This document shows, piece by piece, positions 4,642 through 61,720 of a DNA stretch of 64,000 nt. A program made the translations under genes and the position numbers. The DNA lies in the NCBI GenBank assembly GCA_964347025.1, contig CAYFWU010000004.1:3752-67751 (forward strand), given 5' to 3'. The notes beneath the pieces are model-generated. The model did not search any database and was not told where the DNA came from. It saw nothing but the letters and a program-made list of their open reading frames with translations. This DNA is from an uncultured archaeon (GTDB lineage Archaea; Aenigmatarchaeota; Aenigmatarchaeia; QMZP01; QMZT01). Within the stretch, counting starts at the first letter, position 1. Each line of letters starts with the position of its first letter.

Positions 4642-5196
4642 TTATTTAATGATCCTGCTTACCTTCCTGAATTCGTCCGTCCCTGCCCTGTCCATGACCT
4701 GGAAGATCACGGATTCTGTTGTTGTCAAGAAAATGCCTGCATGGGAAATCCTGCACATTGAGATGCTCCAGTCCATCTGTTTCCGGGAGGAAACCGCGTC
4801 ATAAACCACGTGAACATTGTAGCCTCTTTTCACTCCGTCCAGAGCCGTCTTCAGGACGCACACATGCGCTTCCAGTCCGCAGAGAACGATGTCCTTAACC
4901 TTTAATTTTCTCAGCTCCTTTTCGAACTTTTTATCCCCGAAGCAGGAGAAGTGAAGCTTTTCGAATGGCTTGAAACTGCCCAAGACCTTCGAGACCCCAG
5001 GGACTGTTCGTCCCAGCTTGTCTGGATTCTGCTCTGTCACTATTATGGGGACATTCAGGATACGGAAAGAACCCACAAGTTTCTTTATGTTTTCAGCCAT
5101 TTTGTTGAACTCAAAAATAACGGGCCTGAACTTCTCCTGGACATCTATGACCACCAGACACGTTCTCTTCCTTTCAAGTATCCCCAGTCCTTTCAT
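4642..5196 (-). CDS. isochorismatase-family cysteine hydrolase (nicotinamidase-like)
   Basis: 184 aa. Has CLVVIDVQEKF and VLCGLEAHVCV (catalytic Cys region). Confidence 0.7.
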   Translation of the reverse strand: MKGLGILERKRTCLVVIDVQEKFRPVIFEFNKMAENIKKLVGSFRILNVPIIVTEQNPDKLGRTVPGVSKVLGSFKPFEKLHFSCFGDKKFEKELRKLKVKDIVLCGLEAHVCVLKTALDGVKRGYNVHVVYDAVSSRKQMDWSISMCRISHAGIFLTTTESVIFQVMDRAGTDEFRKVSRIIK

Positions 5197-7234: not shown

Positions 7235-7381
7235 ATGCCTGAGAAGAAATTTTGGAGATGTAATGTGTGCAATGACATACACTTCGGCATGGCTGGTCCC
7301 AAAATTTGTCCGACATGCCAGGCCGAGAACGCGTACGTTGAGATTGATAAAAAGGAAGCTCAGAAGGTTATGAGATTATGA
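7235..7381 (+). CDS. rubredoxin-like zinc/iron-ribbon protein (48 aa, below ORF-track cutoff)
   Basis: Translates to MPEKKFWRCNVCNDIHFGMAGPKICPTCQAENAYVEIDKKEAQKVMRL, with CxxC-x13-CxxC. An ATGA overlap couples it to the next gene. Confidence 0.55.
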   Translation: MPEKKFWRCNVCNDIHFGMAGPKICPTCQAENAYVEIDKKEAQKVMRL

Positions 7382-7659
7382 ATAAGGAAGACATTCGAAG
7401 GATTTGGGAAAGATTTGCAGAAAATAAGGATTTCATGCTCAATCCAGACGAGAAGCATGTAGATATGCTGGCAGACGGGGTTCTGGCGAATGAAAAGAAA
7501 TTCGGCCTTAAACTCTGTCCCTGCAGACTGAGGGACGGAACGAGAGAAACCGATCTCTCGCTAATATGCCCCTGCAACTTCAAAACCCAGGAAGTGTGGG
7601 CAAAGGAAGGTAGATGCTGGTGTGGATTGTTCATTAAAAGAAGTCATGATAAGAGGTGA
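7378..7659 (+). CDS. ferredoxin:thioredoxin reductase catalytic-subunit homolog (FTRc)
   Basis: 93 aa with the CPC-x16-CPC-x13-CWC pattern (LCPCR...ICPCN...CWCGLF), characteristic of the FTR catalytic chain. Confidence 0.75.
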   Translation: MNKEDIRRIWERFAENKDFMLNPDEKHVDMLADGVLANEKKFGLKLCPCRLRDGTRETDLSLICPCNFKTQEVWAKEGRCWCGLFIKRSHDKR

Positions 7660-8193: not shown

Positions 8194-8694
8194 ATGGAAA
8201 CGAATGAAAACCTCATGAAGGCATTCGCAGGCGAGAGTCAAGCGAATAGAAGGTATCTGGCATTCGCGAAAAAGGCGGAGGAGGAAGGTTTCAAAAACAT
8301 TGCAAGACTCTTTCGAGCGGCCGCAAGAGCAGAGACAATTCATGCGCATAACCATCTCAGAACGGTCGGCGAGGTGAAATCAACCAAGGAGAACATCCAG
8401 GCAGCAATAAACGGTGAGAACTACGAATTCACAAAGATGTACCCTGGTTTCATAGAGAAGGCCAAGAGCGAAGGCAGTGAAGACGCGAGAAGGAGTTTCG
8501 ACTGGGCAAACCAGGTTGAAAAGATTCATCACGATCTTTACGAGAAAGCCTTGGAAAACCTGGGCCAGGGGAAGGATATAGAGTCAAAGGATTACTATGT
8601 CTGCCAGACTTGTGGGAACACTGTCGAAGGTTCTCCACCCGAGAGCTGTCCTATATGCGGCTTTCCTAAGAGTCAGTTTAAAAAGATAGAATAA
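8194..8694 (+). CDS. rbr: rubrerythrin
   Basis: 166 aa. Has an N-terminal diiron four-helix region (FAGESQANRRY, ETIHAHNH) and a C-terminal CQTCG...CPICG rubredoxin-like domain. Confidence 0.85.
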   Translation: METNENLMKAFAGESQANRRYLAFAKKAEEEGFKNIARLFRAAARAETIHAHNHLRTVGEVKSTKENIQAAINGENYEFTKMYPGFIEKAKSEGSEDARRSFDWANQVEKIHHDLYEKALENLGQGKDIESKDYYVCQTCGNTVEGSPPESCPICGFPKSQFKKIE

Positions 8695-8707
8695 TTAAGT
8701 GGTAAAA

Positions 8708-9082
8708 ATGACGAATGTAAATGAAGTGTATAAGTGTAATGTATGTGGTAACATTGTCGAAGTATTACATGCAGGAGTAGGTCAGCTCGTCTGCTGCGGC
8801 CAGCCGATGGAACTCTTGGAAGAAAAGACAGAGGACGAGGGGAAAGAGAAGCATGTCCCTGTCATCGAAAAGACAGAGACAGGAGTAAAGGTGAAGATCG
8901 GAAGCGTTCCCCACCCGATGGAGGAGAACCATCACATAGAGTGGATAGAATTGATTGGTGATGGAAGGACCTACAGAAAGTTCCTGAAACCTGGCGAAAA
9001 CCCCGAAGCAGAATTCGAGGTCACTGCGGCCAAGATAGAGGCGAGAGAGTATTGCAACGTCCACGGGCTGTGGAAGGCATGA
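8708..9082 (+). CDS. dfx: desulfoferrodoxin (2Fe superoxide reductase)
   Basis: Has an N-terminal desulforedoxin motif [12 protein letters not shown]...CCG and the SOR centre-II region HVPVI...[14 protein letters not shown]...CNVHGLW. An alternative GTG start lies at 8699. Confidence 0.85.
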
Positions 9083-29706: not shown

Positions 29707-29819
29707 GCTGGGGTGGCCGAGTGGTTAAGGCGCAGTAGCCTTTTGAGAAATCAATGGTTGCGCAAGGTTGCTAACCCTGTGGGCTTCGGCCCGCGCAGGT
29801 TCGAATCCTGTCCCCAGCG
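29707..29819 (+). tRNA. tRNA-Ser (anticodon GCU) with a 30-nt insertion in the 5' strand of the anticodon stem
   Basis: GCTGGGG-TG-GCCG-AGTGGTTAA-GGC-G-CAG[TAGCCTTTTGAGAAATCAATGGTTGCGCAA]GG-TTGCTAA-CCCTG-TGGGCTTCGGCCCGC-GCAGG-TTCGAAT-CCTGT-CCCCAGC-G. Class II variable arm. Confidence 0.7.
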
Positions 29820-43908: not shown

Positions 43909-45147
43909 CTACGGTTTAAACCATTCTATTTCATAGTATTCATACTTGGATTTTGGAAGAACGATCTTTTTCAGTTCGTAGTACGTTATTGAGGTTTCAC
44001 GATCTGTTATCGAGAGCAAAAGATTAAGGCCTGTATCCTTCGCCTTCTTCAACATTGAGGCGAGCTCAACCCCTCCAATGTGCTCGTCTTCAGATACCGA
44101 TACTAACACGTATCTTGGTTTATCCTTAGGGGTCTCTCTCACCCACACCCCTTTTCCTTTCTTCCTCCTGTAAGTCATGAAGTCTCCCTGATAATCAATG
44201 TAATCCTTCTTTTTCAATTCAGGGATCCCTAAGATAAACGTTTTCTTCACCCCGTGCGCAACGCGAACCGCTCTCGACCACTCAGAGATCAACAGTTTCT
44301 GCTCTTTGGGAAAAACATGGAGAACGTGCTTGGAGTGAACCCATTCCCCTCCCCTCACAGGAGAAGCTCCGGGGAAGTAAATACGAAAATGAGAACCGAA
44401 TTTAAACCCTGTTTTCACAACGTAACCTTTCAATCTCCAGTCCTCGTATATCTCATACAACTGTTTGGCATACTCCCTTTTTTTAACAACTTCTTTTAAG
44501 ATTCCCTCTGGTTTCATCTTCTTCCCGGTCTCGTTGCTTATAACCTCCAAGCCGAAGTGTTTCGCAAGGAAAATGGTCTCGAAGAAATTCAGTTTCGATT
44601 GCTTCCCTCTTTCCTGCTTGTACACTCCGTATTGCCCTATCCAGTATTTATCAAAAAGTTCTTTCCCAACCTTGTCGTTGTCCAGTATCGAAAACAGGGA
44701 ATCAGGGTACCAGTAGGCCTTTGCCTTAAGTTTCTCAGGTTTTAATTTCTGGGAAGGGTATTTCTTGTACGTTTTCTTCGAATGCTTACCCTGGACGTTT
44801 TCATTGAACCTTCTTACCACGAGACCGCGATCCCTCCAGTCCCTGTAAGCGTTATACCTTATGAACAGTCTCGGTTCTTTACCAATGAAATGTTTGGCCA
44901 GCGAATTGAAGTCGATCTCCTTCCCCCTCTTGTCCAGAACTACCGCATTCCTGAACATTATCAAATACATTGCTTCTTCGGGAAGTAGCGAGATCTTCCC
45001 CCCTTTCTGATTTCCGAAGAAATCATTCGTTAGTTTTCCAACTATCTCTGCCTCTTCCGCCCATATCCCCTTCCTAGGATCGAATTTCAGCTCAAGCATA
45101 GTAATACCTTTACCAACGGAATATATAAAATTAAAAAAACCCTTCAA
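43909..45147 (-). CDS. endA: tRNA-splicing endonuclease, single-chain three-unit form (alphaN-alpha-betaC-like)
   Basis: 412 aa (alternative ATG at 45099). Residues ~17-115 form an N-domain-like unit ending in YRDWRDRGLVV. Residues ~150-330 form a full catalytic unit (YEDWRLKGYVVKTGFKFGSHFRIY...HSKH...AHGVKK, the Tyr/His/Lys triad). Residues ~350-412 form a C-domain-only unit (YVLVSVSED...LLLSITDRETSITYYELK). Confidence 0.75.
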   Translation of the reverse strand: MKGFFNFIYSVGKGITMLELKFDPRKGIWAEEAEIVGKLTNDFFGNQKGGKISLLPEEAMYLIMFRNAVVLDKRGKEIDFNSLAKHFIGKEPRLFIRYNAYRDWRDRGLVVRRFNENVQGKHSKKTYKKYPSQKLKPEKLKAKAYWYPDSLFSILDNDKVGKELFDKYWIGQYGVYKQERGKQSKLNFFETIFLAKHFGLEVISNETGKKMKPEGILKEVVKKREYAKQLYEIYEDWRLKGYVVKTGFKFGSHFRIYFPGASPVRGGEWVHSKHVLHVFPKEQKLLISEWSRAVRVAHGVKKTFILGIPELKKKDYIDYQGDFMTYRRKKGKGVWVRETPKDKPRYVLVSVSEDEHIGGVELASMLKKAKDTGLNLLLSITDRETSITYYELKKIVLPKSKYEYYEIEWFKP

Positions 45148-46786: not shown

Positions 46787-47614
46787 ATGAAGATTCGCGA
46801 CCTTCTCAAGGGCAAGATCTCAGGTAAGGAAAAAGAATTCCTTAAGACTTCCTTCGATATAGTTGGTGATGTCGCTATCATAGAAATCCCGGAGGAACTT
46901 GAGAAAAAGGAGAAGGAGATAGCGAAAGCCTTAAAGAAGGTACACAAACATATAAAAACCGTTTGCAGGAAGATGAGTAAGAGGGAAGGAAAATACAGAT
47001 TAAGAAAATTTAAGATAATTTTAGGTTCAAAAACCGAAACCATCCATAAAGAACATGGCTGTAAATTCAAAATGGACATATCTAAAGTTTATTTCTCTCC
47101 GAGGGAATCCCAGGAAAGACAAAAGACTGCTGAAAAAATAAAATCCGGAGAAATTGTAATGGTAATGTTTGCAGGGATAGGTCCTTATCCGATAATCATA
47201 GCAAAGAAAAATAAAAATGTGAAAAAAATCTATGCAATTGAGATGAATTCAAAAGCCTTTGAATACATGAAAGAAAATATCAGAATAAATAAAGTTGGAG
47301 ATAAAGTTATTCCAATTTTAGGAAGCGTTGATGAAAAATGCCCGGAATATTTCGGAAAATGTGATCGAATTCTGATGCCTCTGCCAAAAGGATCTCATGA
47401 ATTTCTCTCTCTAGCGATAAATTGCTTAAAAAAAGGAAAGGGATGGATTCATTTTTACTACTGGGCACCTGAAGACGGTTTTAAAGAAGCTGAAGAAATG
47501 GTAAAAGGAACTGTTCGAAATTTAGGAAGGAAGGTAAAGAAAATCGAGATACGCAAGATCCTTCCCTACAAGCCTAAAGTCTGGAAAATATGCATGGATA
47601 TTGAGATTCGTTAG
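46787..47614 (+). CDS. trm5: tRNA (guanine37-N1)-methyltransferase Trm5 / Taw2-like (Met-10+ family)
   Basis: 275 aa. Has FDIVGDVAIIEIPEEL, HKEHGCKFKMDISKVYFSPRES and the SAM motif VMFAGIGPYPI. Confidence 0.75.
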   Translation: MKIRDLLKGKISGKEKEFLKTSFDIVGDVAIIEIPEELEKKEKEIAKALKKVHKHIKTVCRKMSKREGKYRLRKFKIILGSKTETIHKEHGCKFKMDISKVYFSPRESQERQKTAEKIKSGEIVMVMFAGIGPYPIIIAKKNKNVKKIYAIEMNSKAFEYMKENIRINKVGDKVIPILGSVDEKCPEYFGKCDRILMPLPKGSHEFLSLAINCLKKGKGWIHFYYWAPEDGFKEAEEMVKGTVRNLGRKVKKIEIRKILPYKPKVWKICMDIEIR

Positions 47615-51683: not shown

Positions 51684-51819
51684 TGGGCCGGGCAGGATTC
51701 CCAACGACCTTTTGGGTGGCGAGCCTTTTTTGACTCGCGGAAGCGTCTGGAAAAGGTTCGCATTGAACCTGCGACCTTCGCGTTGTAAGCGCGACGTCAT
51801 ACCACTAGACCACCGGCCC
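51684..51819 (-). tRNA. tRNA-Val (anticodon UAC) with a 64-nt insertion in the T-loop
   Basis: Minus strand: GGGCCGG-TG-GTCT-AGTGGTA-TGAC-G-TCGCG-CTTACAA-CGCGA-AGGTC-GCAGG-TTCAA[..64 nt..]AT-CCTGC-CCGGCCC-A. The junction is ambiguous by 2 nt. Confidence 0.75.
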
Positions 51820-52251
51820 GGCTTATTCTAATTTGTTTCAATGTATTTATTAATTTTCAGAACCGGTAAAACTTTGAATTTTCAACAATTTTTGGCCATT
51901 TTCCGGCAATAAACCGATATGCTGAAACCCAAAAATAAAGTATTTAAGCACGTTCGTACATTATACAATCGAATACAGATTTTTGCCATCTTAAAACCCT
52001 TTGAAAGGAGGGAGGTCTACATGGCCAAGAAGAAGAAAGCAAAAAAGAAGAAATAATTTAAAGGTTTAAATTAGTCGGCAAATGGAAAACCGTTTCTTTG
52101 TTTGTTTTTGAAAACGCATGGTTGGGAATCCGGAATATGCAAAAGGGAGGTTGTGTATGTTCAGGCTAGAAGAGGATGAAGACTATGAAGAAGATGAAGA
52201 AGAAGACTTATGATTATCAGTAAATCCTTTATTTTTCATTTTTCTTATTTT

Positions 52252-60606: not shown

Positions 60607-61326
60607 TTACCCCACCTCTTTCAATATTTTTTCACCGTGATGGATCGCTTTCTTCAGAAGCCACTCATCATAACTTTCCTTGTGGATCTTTATGGGTTCT
60701 TTCAGGGTCTTCCAGTGCCATTTAAGTTTGACATTTTTCGACCGGATGTTAAAACCAACCTTCCCCTTAGGATTTTCGAAATCCTTAACTTCAAAGAAAT
60801 TCTTGTTGTTTTTTATTTGATAATTATCCCACCATATCCTTAGGTGCCCTCTTTTCAGACCTTTCTTAACGAACCTGTCAATCCACTTCTTTTGATGTGT
60901 GTCGTAGTCTCCCACCAGATGCAGACGCTCCAGTCTTTCTCCCTTCTTCAGTTTCTTTTCTCTGCACTTGTTCAGAATCCAGTCTTCAAAGCTCTCCTCG
61001 TGCATCTTTATAGGCTTTCTGGGGGTCTTCCAGTGCCATTTCAGTTTTAGTTTTTTCGAACGGATATCAAGACCCACCTTTCCTCCCGGATTTTCAAAAT
61101 CCTTTACCTCTATGAAATTCTTGTCATTCAGAACTTCGCGATTCTCTTTCCAGATCCAGAAATGCCCTCTCTTTAAACCCCTCTTAACGAATCTCTCGAT
61201 CCAGGTTTTCTTGTCAGGATCAATCTTTAATTTCCATTTGCCTTTATTTCGTCTCTCCAGAACAGATATCGCTCTTTCCAGTCTTTTCTCAGTCGATTCA
61301 ATAGGATCCTTTCTTTTTCGAGCCAT
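60607..61326 (-). CDS. hypothetical basic protein made of two tandem ~100-aa repeats
   Basis: 239 aa. Unit 1 is KKTWIERFVKRGLKRGHFWIWKENREV...LKLKWHWKTPRKPIKMHEESFEDWILNK. Unit 2 is QKKWIDRFVKKGLKRGHLRIWWDNYQI...VKLKWHWKTLKEPIKIHKESYDEWLLKK. Confidence 0.45.
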   Translation of the reverse strand: MARKRKDPIESTEKRLERAISVLERRNKGKWKLKIDPDKKTWIERFVKRGLKRGHFWIWKENREVLNDKNFIEVKDFENPGGKVGLDIRSKKLKLKWHWKTPRKPIKMHEESFEDWILNKCREKKLKKGERLERLHLVGDYDTHQKKWIDRFVKKGLKRGHLRIWWDNYQIKNNKNFFEVKDFENPKGKVGFNIRSKNVKLKWHWKTLKEPIKIHKESYDEWLLKKAIHHGEKILKEVG

Positions 61327-61415
61327 GAGACCACCCTGGGAAAATAACCGAATGTCTATTTATTGGAATCCTGATATTTATAGTTTTTGCCGATGATCTG
61401 AAAAAAAGGAGATCA

Positions 61416-61665
61416 CGCTGGGAGCAGGAAATTCGAGCGAAGCAGGTTTCACCTGCTTCATACGCCATTCGAACCTGCACGGGCAAAAAGCCCACCGGAT
61501 CTCTTGACATAGCTCGTCCGAGGACTTGCTGATGTAAGATACTGGTTTTGGTTGATCTTCATCTCCGCCGTATCCGAGTCAAGCCATCAAATCACCGCAA
61601 CGCAAGGTCGCTCATAAGATCCAGTGCTCAAGTCCGGCGCGTTAGCCTGGTTCCGCCATCCCAGC
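61416..61665 (-). tRNA. tRNA-Ser (anticodon UGA) with a 126-nt canonical-position intron and a 38-nt T-loop insertion
   Basis: Minus strand: GCTGGGA-TG-GCGG-AACCAGGCTAA-CGC-G-CCGGA-CTTGAG[126]A-TCCGG-TGGGCTTTTTGCCCGT-GCAGG-TTCGAAT[38]CCTGC-TCCCAGC-G. A TATTTATAAATA box lies about 30 nt upstream. Confidence 0.7.
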
Positions 61666-61720
61666 GTGTGTCTATAGAATTCTATTGATGTATATTTATA
61701 AATAGCATCCAGAATTGAAT

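Follow-up and report, generated by a model that had tools for sequence, protein, structure and literature searches.

Does the unusually long intron of an archaeal tRNA-Ser(UGA) gene carry a function of its own? This question was raised by a 64,000-nucleotide (nt) stretch of contig CAYFWU010000004.1 (assembly GCA_964347025.1, positions 3,752 to 67,751 of the forward strand) from an uncultured archaeon, hereafter the window. The initial annotation of the window had described a tRNA-Ser(UGA) gene interrupted by a 126-nt intron and by a second, 38-nt insertion in the T-loop, and had asked whether the long intron is functional. The comparison with orthologous genes answered this question positively, as the intron was found to be conserved across lineages and its core is firmly supported by the aligned sequences as a selected, structured RNA. 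The form of this core pointed, more tentatively, to a guide RNA resembling the archaeal box C/D type.

A two-intron tRNA-Ser(UGA) gene and the conservation of its long intron

The gene lies on the minus strand (61416..61665, 250 nt; this is the strand of all features below unless stated otherwise), exactly as the annotation had parsed it, and is 86 nt long when spliced. Its 5' exon (61627..61665) comprises tRNA positions 1-37 and ends in the anticodon loop with CUUGAG. It is followed by intron 1 of 126 nt at the canonical 37/38 site (61501..61626), a middle exon running from A38 via the variable arm to A59 of the T-loop (61468..61500), intron 2 of 38 nt at the 59/60 site (61430..61467), and a 3' exon made up of U60, the 3' strands of the T-stem and the acceptor stem, and the discriminator G (61416..61429). 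In the raw window, the gene was missed by both ARAGORN and Rfam. When both 126 nt and 38 nt were deleted, ARAGORN recognized a tRNA-Ser(tga) of 86 nt whose acceptor stem is a perfect 7 bp, whose variable arm is long and whose T-loop reads UUCGAAU; deletion of the T-loop insert alone resulted in the same tRNA-Ser with a 126-nt intron at 37/38. The orthologues L059 and L060 were also called as tRNA-Ser(tga) after removal of their introns.

A scan for bulge-helix-bulge (BHB) splice motifs agreed with both introns. The motif of intron 1 consists of a 7-bp exon helix h (CGCCGGA/UCCGGUG), a central helix H (CUUG/CAAG) and the bulges AG↓C and AG↓A (arrows mark the splice points), so that the annotated pairing of the 3' end of the long intron with the anticodon loop was confirmed. 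Its outer helix is just 2 bp, which makes the motif nearly a relaxed hBH motif; among the orthologues this helix ranged from a strict 4 bp in L062 to none in L014 and L060. Intron 2 has a strict hBHBh' motif (GCAGG/CCUGC, UUCG/CGAA, bulges AA↓U and UU↓U, GGCG/CGCU), which placed it at 59/60, one base 5' of the annotated 60/61 site, with the mature sequence unchanged. The hairpin AGCAGG/CCUGCU within this intron, present in the window and in L014, does include the T-stem sequence GCAGG/CCUGC as had been noticed. The TCGAA repeat, taken at first for a partial duplicate of the T-loop, proved to be the 3' strand of the central BHB helix and not a decaying duplicate. Decay of the whole copy, which had also been considered, is at odds with the near-identical exons in eight independent assemblies. 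A TATA box, TTTATAAATA, is located ~30 nt 5' of the gene (61693..61702) and is kept in the closer lineages, and a run of seven T residues on the 3' side (61401..61407) is a likely transcription stop. The combined sequence evidence firmly supports a functional two-intron gene, and the conservation of the exons in eight lineages suggests that both introns are excised in vivo.

The eight lineages compared were those of the window, L007, L010/L015/L018, L014/L022, L016, L059, L060 and L062. The four closer ones were found via the neighbouring genes and two exact-match scans, and the three distant ones (L059, L060 and L062) via homologues of the neighbouring UbiA, which are 58-60% identical. All eight share the gene order UbiA, zinc-finger protein (zf), Trm112 and tRNA-Ser, with UbiA identities of 58-81% between the window and the seven others. 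In comparisons among the window, L010, L016 and L022, which represent four of the five closer lineages, the UbiA proteins share 76-79% identity and third-codon positions agree at only 46-57%, indicating that neutral (synonymous) sites are saturated. The 37/38 intron was nevertheless present in 8/8 lineages, with lengths of 93-217 nt and the same core throughout. Numbered by the intron nucleotides of the window copy, the core was invariant at A12, G14, A15, G16, U33, G34, A35, nt 40-51, G53, A54 and nt 65-71, and nt 1-10 varied solely in L060, at two positions. In these genes, the T-loop introns share one site and are unalignable or belong to another family, and more generally the T-loop, D-loop and variable-arm introns were replaced or unrelated between lineages; the unalignable T-loop introns thus serve as an internal neutral control for the conservation of the long intron. 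Coding potential was considered for a 34-aa open reading frame (ORF) starting from AUGAAGA and rejected, as the frame is broken by a 2-nt indel and larger indels in orthologues; the constraint therefore acts on the RNA. Among the sequences searched, the D' guide defined below, a core 20-mer and the exon-intron junction occurred nowhere except in these tRNA-Ser genes. A scan of viral contigs with a 17-mer gave chance matches only, and in the scan of genome contigs 22 of the 24 matches, as well as L011, were due to chance.

Several observations concern the surroundings of the gene. The interval from the TATA box to the start of the tRNA contains the palindromic motif AATAGAATTCTATAG (61666-61690, minus strand). 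It is exact in L007, has one change in L016 and about two in L010, is degraded in L014, and is absent from the distant L059, L060 and L062. The motif may form a leader hairpin or bind a protein. The public assembly WVYL01000133.1 (L001) stops 24 nt past the neighbouring gene, just before tRNA-Ser, and the Logan contig L002 breaks within the tRNA-Ser gene, on which grounds assemblies may tend to break repeatedly in this multi-intron tRNA region. In L056 (CP070809.1, an 846-kb contig of Aenigmatarchaeota), a run of 100 N (4944-5043) stands at the expected place of tRNA-Ser after Trm112; the locus has two further N runs, the sequence being masked there, and a fibrillarin gene is located ~4.6 kb upstream of the first-named run.

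Architecture of the intron core

The intron begins with CACUGGAUCUU (nt 1-11, 61616..61626), a putative D guide that pairs with the 3' junction, directly followed by AUGA (nt 12-15, 61612..61615), a D-like box of the form A-N-G-A whose G14 and A15 are invariant in the eight lineages. A hairpin, P3 (GCGAC CUUGC GUUGC, nt 16-30, 61597..61611), separates this box from GGU GA UUU (nt 31-38, 61589..61596), which contains a three-nucleotide N-R-U bulge and the invariant GA of a C-like box. The next 12 nt, GAUGGCUUGACU (nt 39-50, 61577..61588), form a spacer and putative D' guide, which leads to the D'-like box CGGA (nt 51-54, 61573..61576; CUGA in L014, L059 and L062). After the loop of a second K-motif, UACGGCGGAG (nt 55-64, 61563..61572), in which GGCGG is conserved, comes the C'-like box AUGAAGA (nt 65-71, 61556..61562), which matches RUGAUGA at six of seven positions and is invariant in 8/8 lineages. 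The remainder consists of a tail (nt 72-91, 61536..61555) including CCAGU at nt 82-86, and a 3' hairpin adjoining the central BHB helix (nt 92-120, 61507..61535).

P3 was paired in all eight lineages with differing stem sequences (GCGAC/GUUGC, GUCGC/GCGAC, GCUA..UAGC, GCGA..UCGC, GUGCC/GGCAU, GCCAAAU/AUUUGGC and GC-CCGGA/UCCGG-AC). The invariant G14 and A15, P3, the N-R-U bulge and the invariant G34 and A35 follow each other in the order of a kink-turn (K-turn), here K-turn 1, with P3 as its C-stem and nt 14-15 forming tandem G.A/A.G pairs with nt 34-35. The flanks are A-N-G-A on the D-like side and R-U-G-A-Y-U-U on the C-like side, and the stem of P3 is closed by a loop and not by RNA ends. 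Positions 13 and 36, which would form the 'U.U' pair of K-turn 1, are among the few that vary. Indeed, the variable core positions (13, 31, 32, 36, 39, 52 and 64) are those left free by the consensus of C/D K-turns. A K-turn around P3 is thereby a well-supported prediction of the alignment. The spacer between the C-like box and the D'-like box is exactly 12 nt in 8/8 lineages, which fits the guide length in archaea (PMC7994747), and its nt 40-50 (AUGGCUUGACU) are invariant. The second K-motif, a K-turn or a K-loop, was recognized as a sequence pattern of C-N-G-A, a loop of 10-12 nt with GGCGG, and AUGAAGA. It permits the pairs G67.A54, A68.G53, G70-C51 and A71-U50, as in a D'/C' K-loop.

The outer parts of the intron were less constant. 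Within the tail, CCAG alone is kept in all lineages, the remainder varying in the distant ones, and CCAG(U) can pair with intron nt 2-6 to form helix P1. The 3' hairpin has covarying stems, but only a simple hairpin of 4 bp remains of it in L059 and nothing in L060. The alignment also led us to discard several other readings of these elements. The C' register GAGAUGA (nt 62-68) was replaced by AUGAAGA, as G64 is not kept in L059, L060 and L062, which have U or A there. An alternative K-turn, 'Model A', with helix P2 (GAUCU/AGAUC) as the C-stem was rejected because C9 to A in L060 and U72 to G in L059 and L060 are uncompensated there; the C9 change in L060 is compensated at the last nucleotide of the intron instead of in P2. 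A tandem-GA 3' hairpin together with the tail CAACCAAAA was dismissed as an essential element because neither is kept in L059 or L060.

A permuted C/D-like guide reading and its rivals

The order of elements in the intron is guide, D, stem, C, guide, D', loop, C'. When it is read from the C-like box, it becomes C, a 12-nt guide, D', a loop, C', a long spacer, a guide, D and a terminal stem, whereas the layout of archaeal C/D RNAs is C, guide, D', C', guide, D (PMC7994747). The core would thus correspond to the canonical layout with two changes, namely that the P3 loop closes the usual ends, and that the chain is opened in the spacer between C' and D, where the tRNA exons are attached. The initial annotation had found no convincing C/D boxes in the intron. 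The eight aligned orthologues revised this view, as they display degenerate, circularly permuted C/D-like boxes that would form K-turn motifs. In a test with dinucleotide-preserving shuffles of the intron, the full core architecture appeared in 17 of 50,000 shuffles, and an earlier partial pattern in 9 of 20,000, both patterns being post hoc and both figures indicative only.

The position of the putative D guide relative to its box gave a specific prediction of its target. Nt 1-11, directly 5' of the D-like box, are complementary to the last two intron nucleotides and tRNA A38-G45, with 10 contiguous pairs to the 3' junction in 8/8 lineages; against the mature tRNA of the window, 11-12 pairs are possible (tRNA 34-45 region). 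In this helix A7 stands opposite U39, which is thereby the N+5 position. In Haloferax and Pyrococcus, the box C/D RNA of the tRNA-Trp intron guides Cm34 and Um39 (PMC4090602; PMC7994747). The guide of L060 has the changes C1-G45 to A1-U45 and C9-G(-1) to A9-U(-1), both of which are compensated, and a third change at N+1, where pairing is not required. As the compensation of A9-U(-1) exists in the precursor and not in the mature tRNA, it points to action on the pre-tRNA. The unconstrained minimum free energy (MFE) fold of the precursor included the helix of guide and junction (-98.1 kcal/mol), which excludes the anticodon stem and the BHB, and the fold with BHB and anticodon stem enforced reached -93.4 kcal/mol. 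These predicted energies suggest that the precursor has two competing conformations, and there is firm support for an alternative helix in the precursor that takes in the 3' splice junction. The target sequence of the D' guide would be 5'-AGUCAAGCCAU-3', with its A opposite U46 of the guide.

We tentatively read the long intron as a circularly permuted C/D-like guide ribonucleoprotein (RNP) acting on its own tRNA, to which we assign a probability a little short of even. In the working model, both BHB introns would be removed by the epsilon2-type splicing endonuclease encoded in the window. The 38-nt T-loop intron is an ordinary member of a mobile mini-intron family, and the 126-nt intron would contain a selected RNA of ~90 nt built like a permuted archaeal box C/D guide RNA. 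L7Ae would recognize K-turn 1 as well as the second K-motif, with Nop5 and fibrillarin assembling on both. The D guide would base-pair across the 3' splice junction into the 3' strand of the anticodon stem and thereby preclude the splicing-competent BHB fold, until U39 is 2'-O-methylated and refolding permits splicing. Excision, probably followed by circularisation of the intron by tRNA ligase, would re-create the C'-guide-D connection of canonical RNAs, and the circular form could act in trans on another RNA by means of the invariant D' guide. The binding of proteins, the methylation, the circularisation and the action in trans are all predicted. The complete scheme, in which the tRNA body lies inside the D-guide spacer, excision and ligation restore the connectivity, U39 and a second conserved RNA are methylated, and the RNA of some lineages has to lose nested BHB introns before it can function, is possible yet doubtful; it would amount to introns inside an intron of archaeal tRNA, in genes with four or more BHB introns.

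A considerable number of observations weigh against a C/D-type guide. The linear order C, D', C', D is not found, and the spacing from C' to D is 26-66 nt and continuous only over the circular junction; because these two defining features are lacking, we call the intron C/D-like and not a C/D small RNA. The boxes are degenerate, D being ANGA in place of CUGA and C being RUGA-YUU, and U37 to C in L062 weakens the non-canonical stem of K-turn 1. The Rfam search proposed for the intron gave zero matches even at E <= 10, nor was there a supporting match for the gene as a whole at E <= 10 or over the window at E <= 5. A descriptor of canonical C/D RNAs (RUGAUGA-N10-14-CUGA-...-CUGA) had no match in the whole window. 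L7Ae, Nop5 and fibrillarin were absent among the window ORFs scanned, which means little in a sample of 64 kb, while fibrillarin is encoded in the related contig L056. The covariation of the guide helix is limited to two events in one lineage (L060), and by shuffling, a stretch of 12 contiguous nt complementary to the tRNA has, on its own, p ~0.05 of arising at some place in the intron. The shuffle statistics of the architecture are post hoc because the boxes were found by eye. The search for the D' guide target in the window and 14 related loci, which are without rRNA, returned only the antisense of the guide itself.

The same data were examined for other explanations. The core could be a cis-acting structural or regulatory RNA without guide activity, bound by L7Ae or not, which folds the long intron so that the epsilon2 endonuclease locates the weak BHB, or which keeps the pre-tRNA in the alternative helix of intron nt 1-10 and the 3' junction and in this way orders the steps of processing. 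The outer BHB helix of 0-2 bp in most lineages agrees with this, as extra architecture such as P1 and the 3' hairpin may be needed there, and so do the thermodynamically competitive alternative helix, the two compensated changes in the pre-tRNA and not the mature context, and the target search in trans that found none in the window and the 14 loci. Help in folding, however, would need neither 11 invariant single-stranded nucleotides (nt 40-50) nor an exact 12-nt spacer and two GA/GA motifs with C/D-like flanks, and L060, which is presumably spliced without the tail or the 3' hairpin, still has the K-motifs and the spacer. We regard a purely cis-acting role as unlikely. A trans-acting small RNA of another, undescribed class, such as an antisense RNA or an RNP subunit that makes use of the tRNA promoter and splicing, would leave the C/D resemblance superficial. 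The invariance of nt 40-51, nt 65-71 and GGCGG together with the empty partner search, the lack of an Rfam match and the non-canonical box order are what such an RNA would lead one to expect, whereas the K-turn signature of P3, the 12-nt spacing and U39 at N+5 are predictions of the C/D model that were borne out, and the core motifs are confined to these tRNA-Ser genes in the sequences searched. This explanation appeared quite improbable to us.

That the intron is a neutral or selfish element, recently spread as a mobile intron in a gene that may be decaying, has a probability close to nil. Mini-intron families do move between sites of the tRNA-Ser gene, and long introns could do so too. The conservation data exclude this reading, since the same intron occurs at the same site of a syntenic gene in eight lineages with saturated synonymous sites, the exons, promoter and cloverleaf are intact, and the neutral introns of the same genes are fully turned over; a single recent transfer is excluded by the 58-81% identity of the flanking protein. 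Known RNA classes were also compared with the intron and rejected. An H/ACA RNA was dismissed because the ACA box after the closing helix does not occur in L014 or L016 and no two-sided pocket was found. The resemblance of GAAGAU..CCAG to 5S rRNA is accompanied by neither a helix I nor an Rfam match. The hammerhead-like CUGAUGA...GAAA at the nested-intron junction of L014 does not adjoin stem II and has no counterpart in related copies.

To our knowledge, tRNA-Trp provides the sole example so far of an archaeal tRNA intron with its own function. Work by Daniels (1985), Clouet d'Orval (2001) and Singh (2004) reportedly described the pre-tRNA-Trp intron as 105 nt long with alternative folds, and Singh et al. 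(2004) reportedly found two competing conformations of pre-tRNA-Trp. The permuted C/D-like guide proposed here shares much with that intron (sR50; Haloferax, Pyrococcus). Both are ~100-nt introns at 37/38 with C/D-type boxes capable of forming K-turns, each guide can pair with its own tRNA at the 3' strand of the anticodon stem, with position 39 at N+5, and in both the guide-target fold and the BHB fold are mutually exclusive. The present intron differs in its host, tRNA-Ser(UGA) of a DPANN lineage, in its degenerate boxes and in their permuted order. It has no guide for position 34, its second guide lacks a target in the host tRNA, and Rfam similarity is missing; moreover, the long intron of tRNA-Ser hosts nested BHB introns in some lineages. 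For the permuted topology, the signal recognition particle (SRP) RNA of Thermoproteus offers a likeness, as this non-coding RNA is also permuted and, according to Plagens 2015 (cited in PMC7994747), becomes functional when BHB endonuclease cleavage and RtcB ligation circularise it and establish its connectivity. Here the RNA is C/D-like and a tRNA intron, and its circularisation is predicted. If the proposal is true, a second functional tRNA intron would mean that intron-borne guides recur and are not a one-off, to which the difference from tRNA-Trp in host tRNA, phylum and permuted architecture would add weight, and the intron would show, in a natural setting, how much change of topology the C/D RNP can bear.

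Mini-introns, splicing endonuclease and neighbouring genes

The long intron is itself interrupted in some lineages. L014 and L059 have inserts of 60 nt and 109 nt, respectively, between A54 and U55 of the core, each with a strict BHB (UUGA/UCGG, CUCU/GGGG or CUCU/GGAG, bulges GA↓U and AA↓U), whose removal restores CUGA-UUCGGCG..AUGAAGA with the same spacing as elsewhere. L062 has an insert at the same A54/U55 site, with one mismatch in a flanking helix. In L007, a 34-nt strict-BHB insert is located in the P3 loop, and its removal leaves a 4-bp stem with a 5-nt loop; P3 of L010 is enlarged. In both putative K-motifs, it is the apical loop that receives the nested inserts.

The inserts fall into two families, which also occupy the T-loop and the variable arm of tRNA-Ser across the lineages; the placement of members in the D-loop of L059, L060 and L062 was judged by eye only. 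Family (i) is ~38 nt long, with a CGGUUGA-like flank, a covarying or variable hairpin and a UUCGCU flank, and is found in the T-loop of the window (the 38-nt intron 2), in the variable arms of L014, L007 and L016, and in P3 of L010 and L007. Family (ii) is 60-120 nt long (CCUUUU...CAAAAG...GAAAA) and is found in the T-loop and nested in intron 1. An nhmmer search of the window detected no copy of either family beyond the tRNA-Ser gene. The distant orthologues (L059:7075-7478, L062:~8281-8751 and L060:~7258-7545) are more heavily disrupted. By hand parse, L059 and L060 each have a putative intron in the D-loop as well as introns at 37/38 and in the T-loop, to which L059 adds a nested one. L062, also parsed by hand, has putative D-loop and variable-arm introns besides those at 37/38 and in the T-loop, that is, four plus a nested intron. 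A review puts the maximum at three introns for a tRNA gene (PMC4033280). The nested BHB introns and, as far as the hand parse goes, the genes that have over three introns take tRNA gene disruption past its known limits, and the former show mini-introns colonising what appears to be a functional intron.

The expected cutter of both introns is a tRNA splicing endonuclease of the three-unit epsilon2 type, encoded at 43909..45147. The initial annotation had taken this ORF for the splicing endonuclease, and the assignment was upheld and narrowed to the broad-specificity epsilon2 type by its tRNA-intron endonuclease domains and by an alignment with the ARMAN-2 epsilon2 EndA (PDB 4fz2; residues 28-412 of 412, E = 3e-104). 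According to its description (PMC3239211), the ARMAN-2 enzyme cuts strict and relaxed BHB motifs in vitro, and 56% of the tRNA genes of ARMAN-2 are disrupted, including 59/60 introns and multi-intron tRNAs. Because the genome here encodes an epsilon2 endonuclease of the ARMAN-2 type, its multi-intron tRNAs are of a known kind. ARMAN-2 (Ca. Micrarchaeum) thus shares with the window the three-unit endonuclease, 59/60 introns, multi-intron tRNAs and strict or relaxed BHB motifs. It differs in that the window genome is labelled Aenigmarchaeota and that its relatives exceed three introns per gene by hand parse; a conserved, functional-looking long intron is not mentioned in the part of PMC3239211 available. 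The 38-nt intron, as distinct from the conserved 126-nt one, also resembles the transposing tRNA introns of Thermoproteales, described as similar short BHB introns at various positions by Fujishima 2010 (cited in PMC4033280). Those belong to another phylum with another endonuclease type, and the copies found here are all in one orthologous gene. The tRNA-Ser gene itself is hence of the ordinary disrupted-tRNA class represented by ARMAN-2 and Thermoproteales, and the long intron is the new part.

A 2018 survey knew the epsilon2 type solely from Ca. Micrarchaeum (ARMAN-1/2) and Ca. Mancarchaeum, and the window genome and its relatives are labelled Aenigmarchaeota or Aenigmatarchaeota; the window's proteins match with full identity those of an NCBI MAG that bears the label Ca. 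Aenigmarchaeota. The locus places this endonuclease, hitherto of Micrarchaeum-type organisms, in genomes with such labels, which may reflect either a wider distribution of the enzyme or loose taxon labels. As the tRNA-Ser gene was invisible to ARAGORN and Rfam, the 'missing' tRNAs of DPANN bins may often be genes of this sort.

Introns interrupt three of the window's four tRNA genes, namely tRNA-Ser(UGA), a probable tRNA-Ser(GCU) and tRNA-Val(UAC). The class II tRNA of 113 nt at 29707-29819 (plus strand) is most likely tRNA-Ser(GCU) by hand parse, with an intron of ~31 nt in the anticodon-stem region that the deletion scan did not pin. No strict BHB was found in this gene, and ARAGORN trials also permitted a less plausible Lys(UUU) reading. 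The tRNA-Val(UAC) gene (~51684-51822, minus strand; GAACCUUUUCC...CAAAAAAGG...CCCAAAAGG) has a T-loop intron of ~63-70 nt that by eye resembles mini-intron family (ii); at this locus Rfam detected a 56-nt partial tRNA only, and ARAGORN nothing.

A gene for a tRNA methyltransferase of the Trm5/TYW2 family is located ~1.6 kb from the endonuclease gene (46787-47614, plus strand), and G37 of tRNA-Ser(UGA) is a possible m1G37 substrate of its product. Just downstream of tRNA-Ser, the minus strand encodes a 239-aa protein (60607-61326) that has no Pfam match and has homologues only in a handful of related metagenomic contigs. This protein consists of two tandem repeats of ~110 aa (KKxWIERFVKxGLKRGH...VKDFENPxGKVG...KLKWHWKT).

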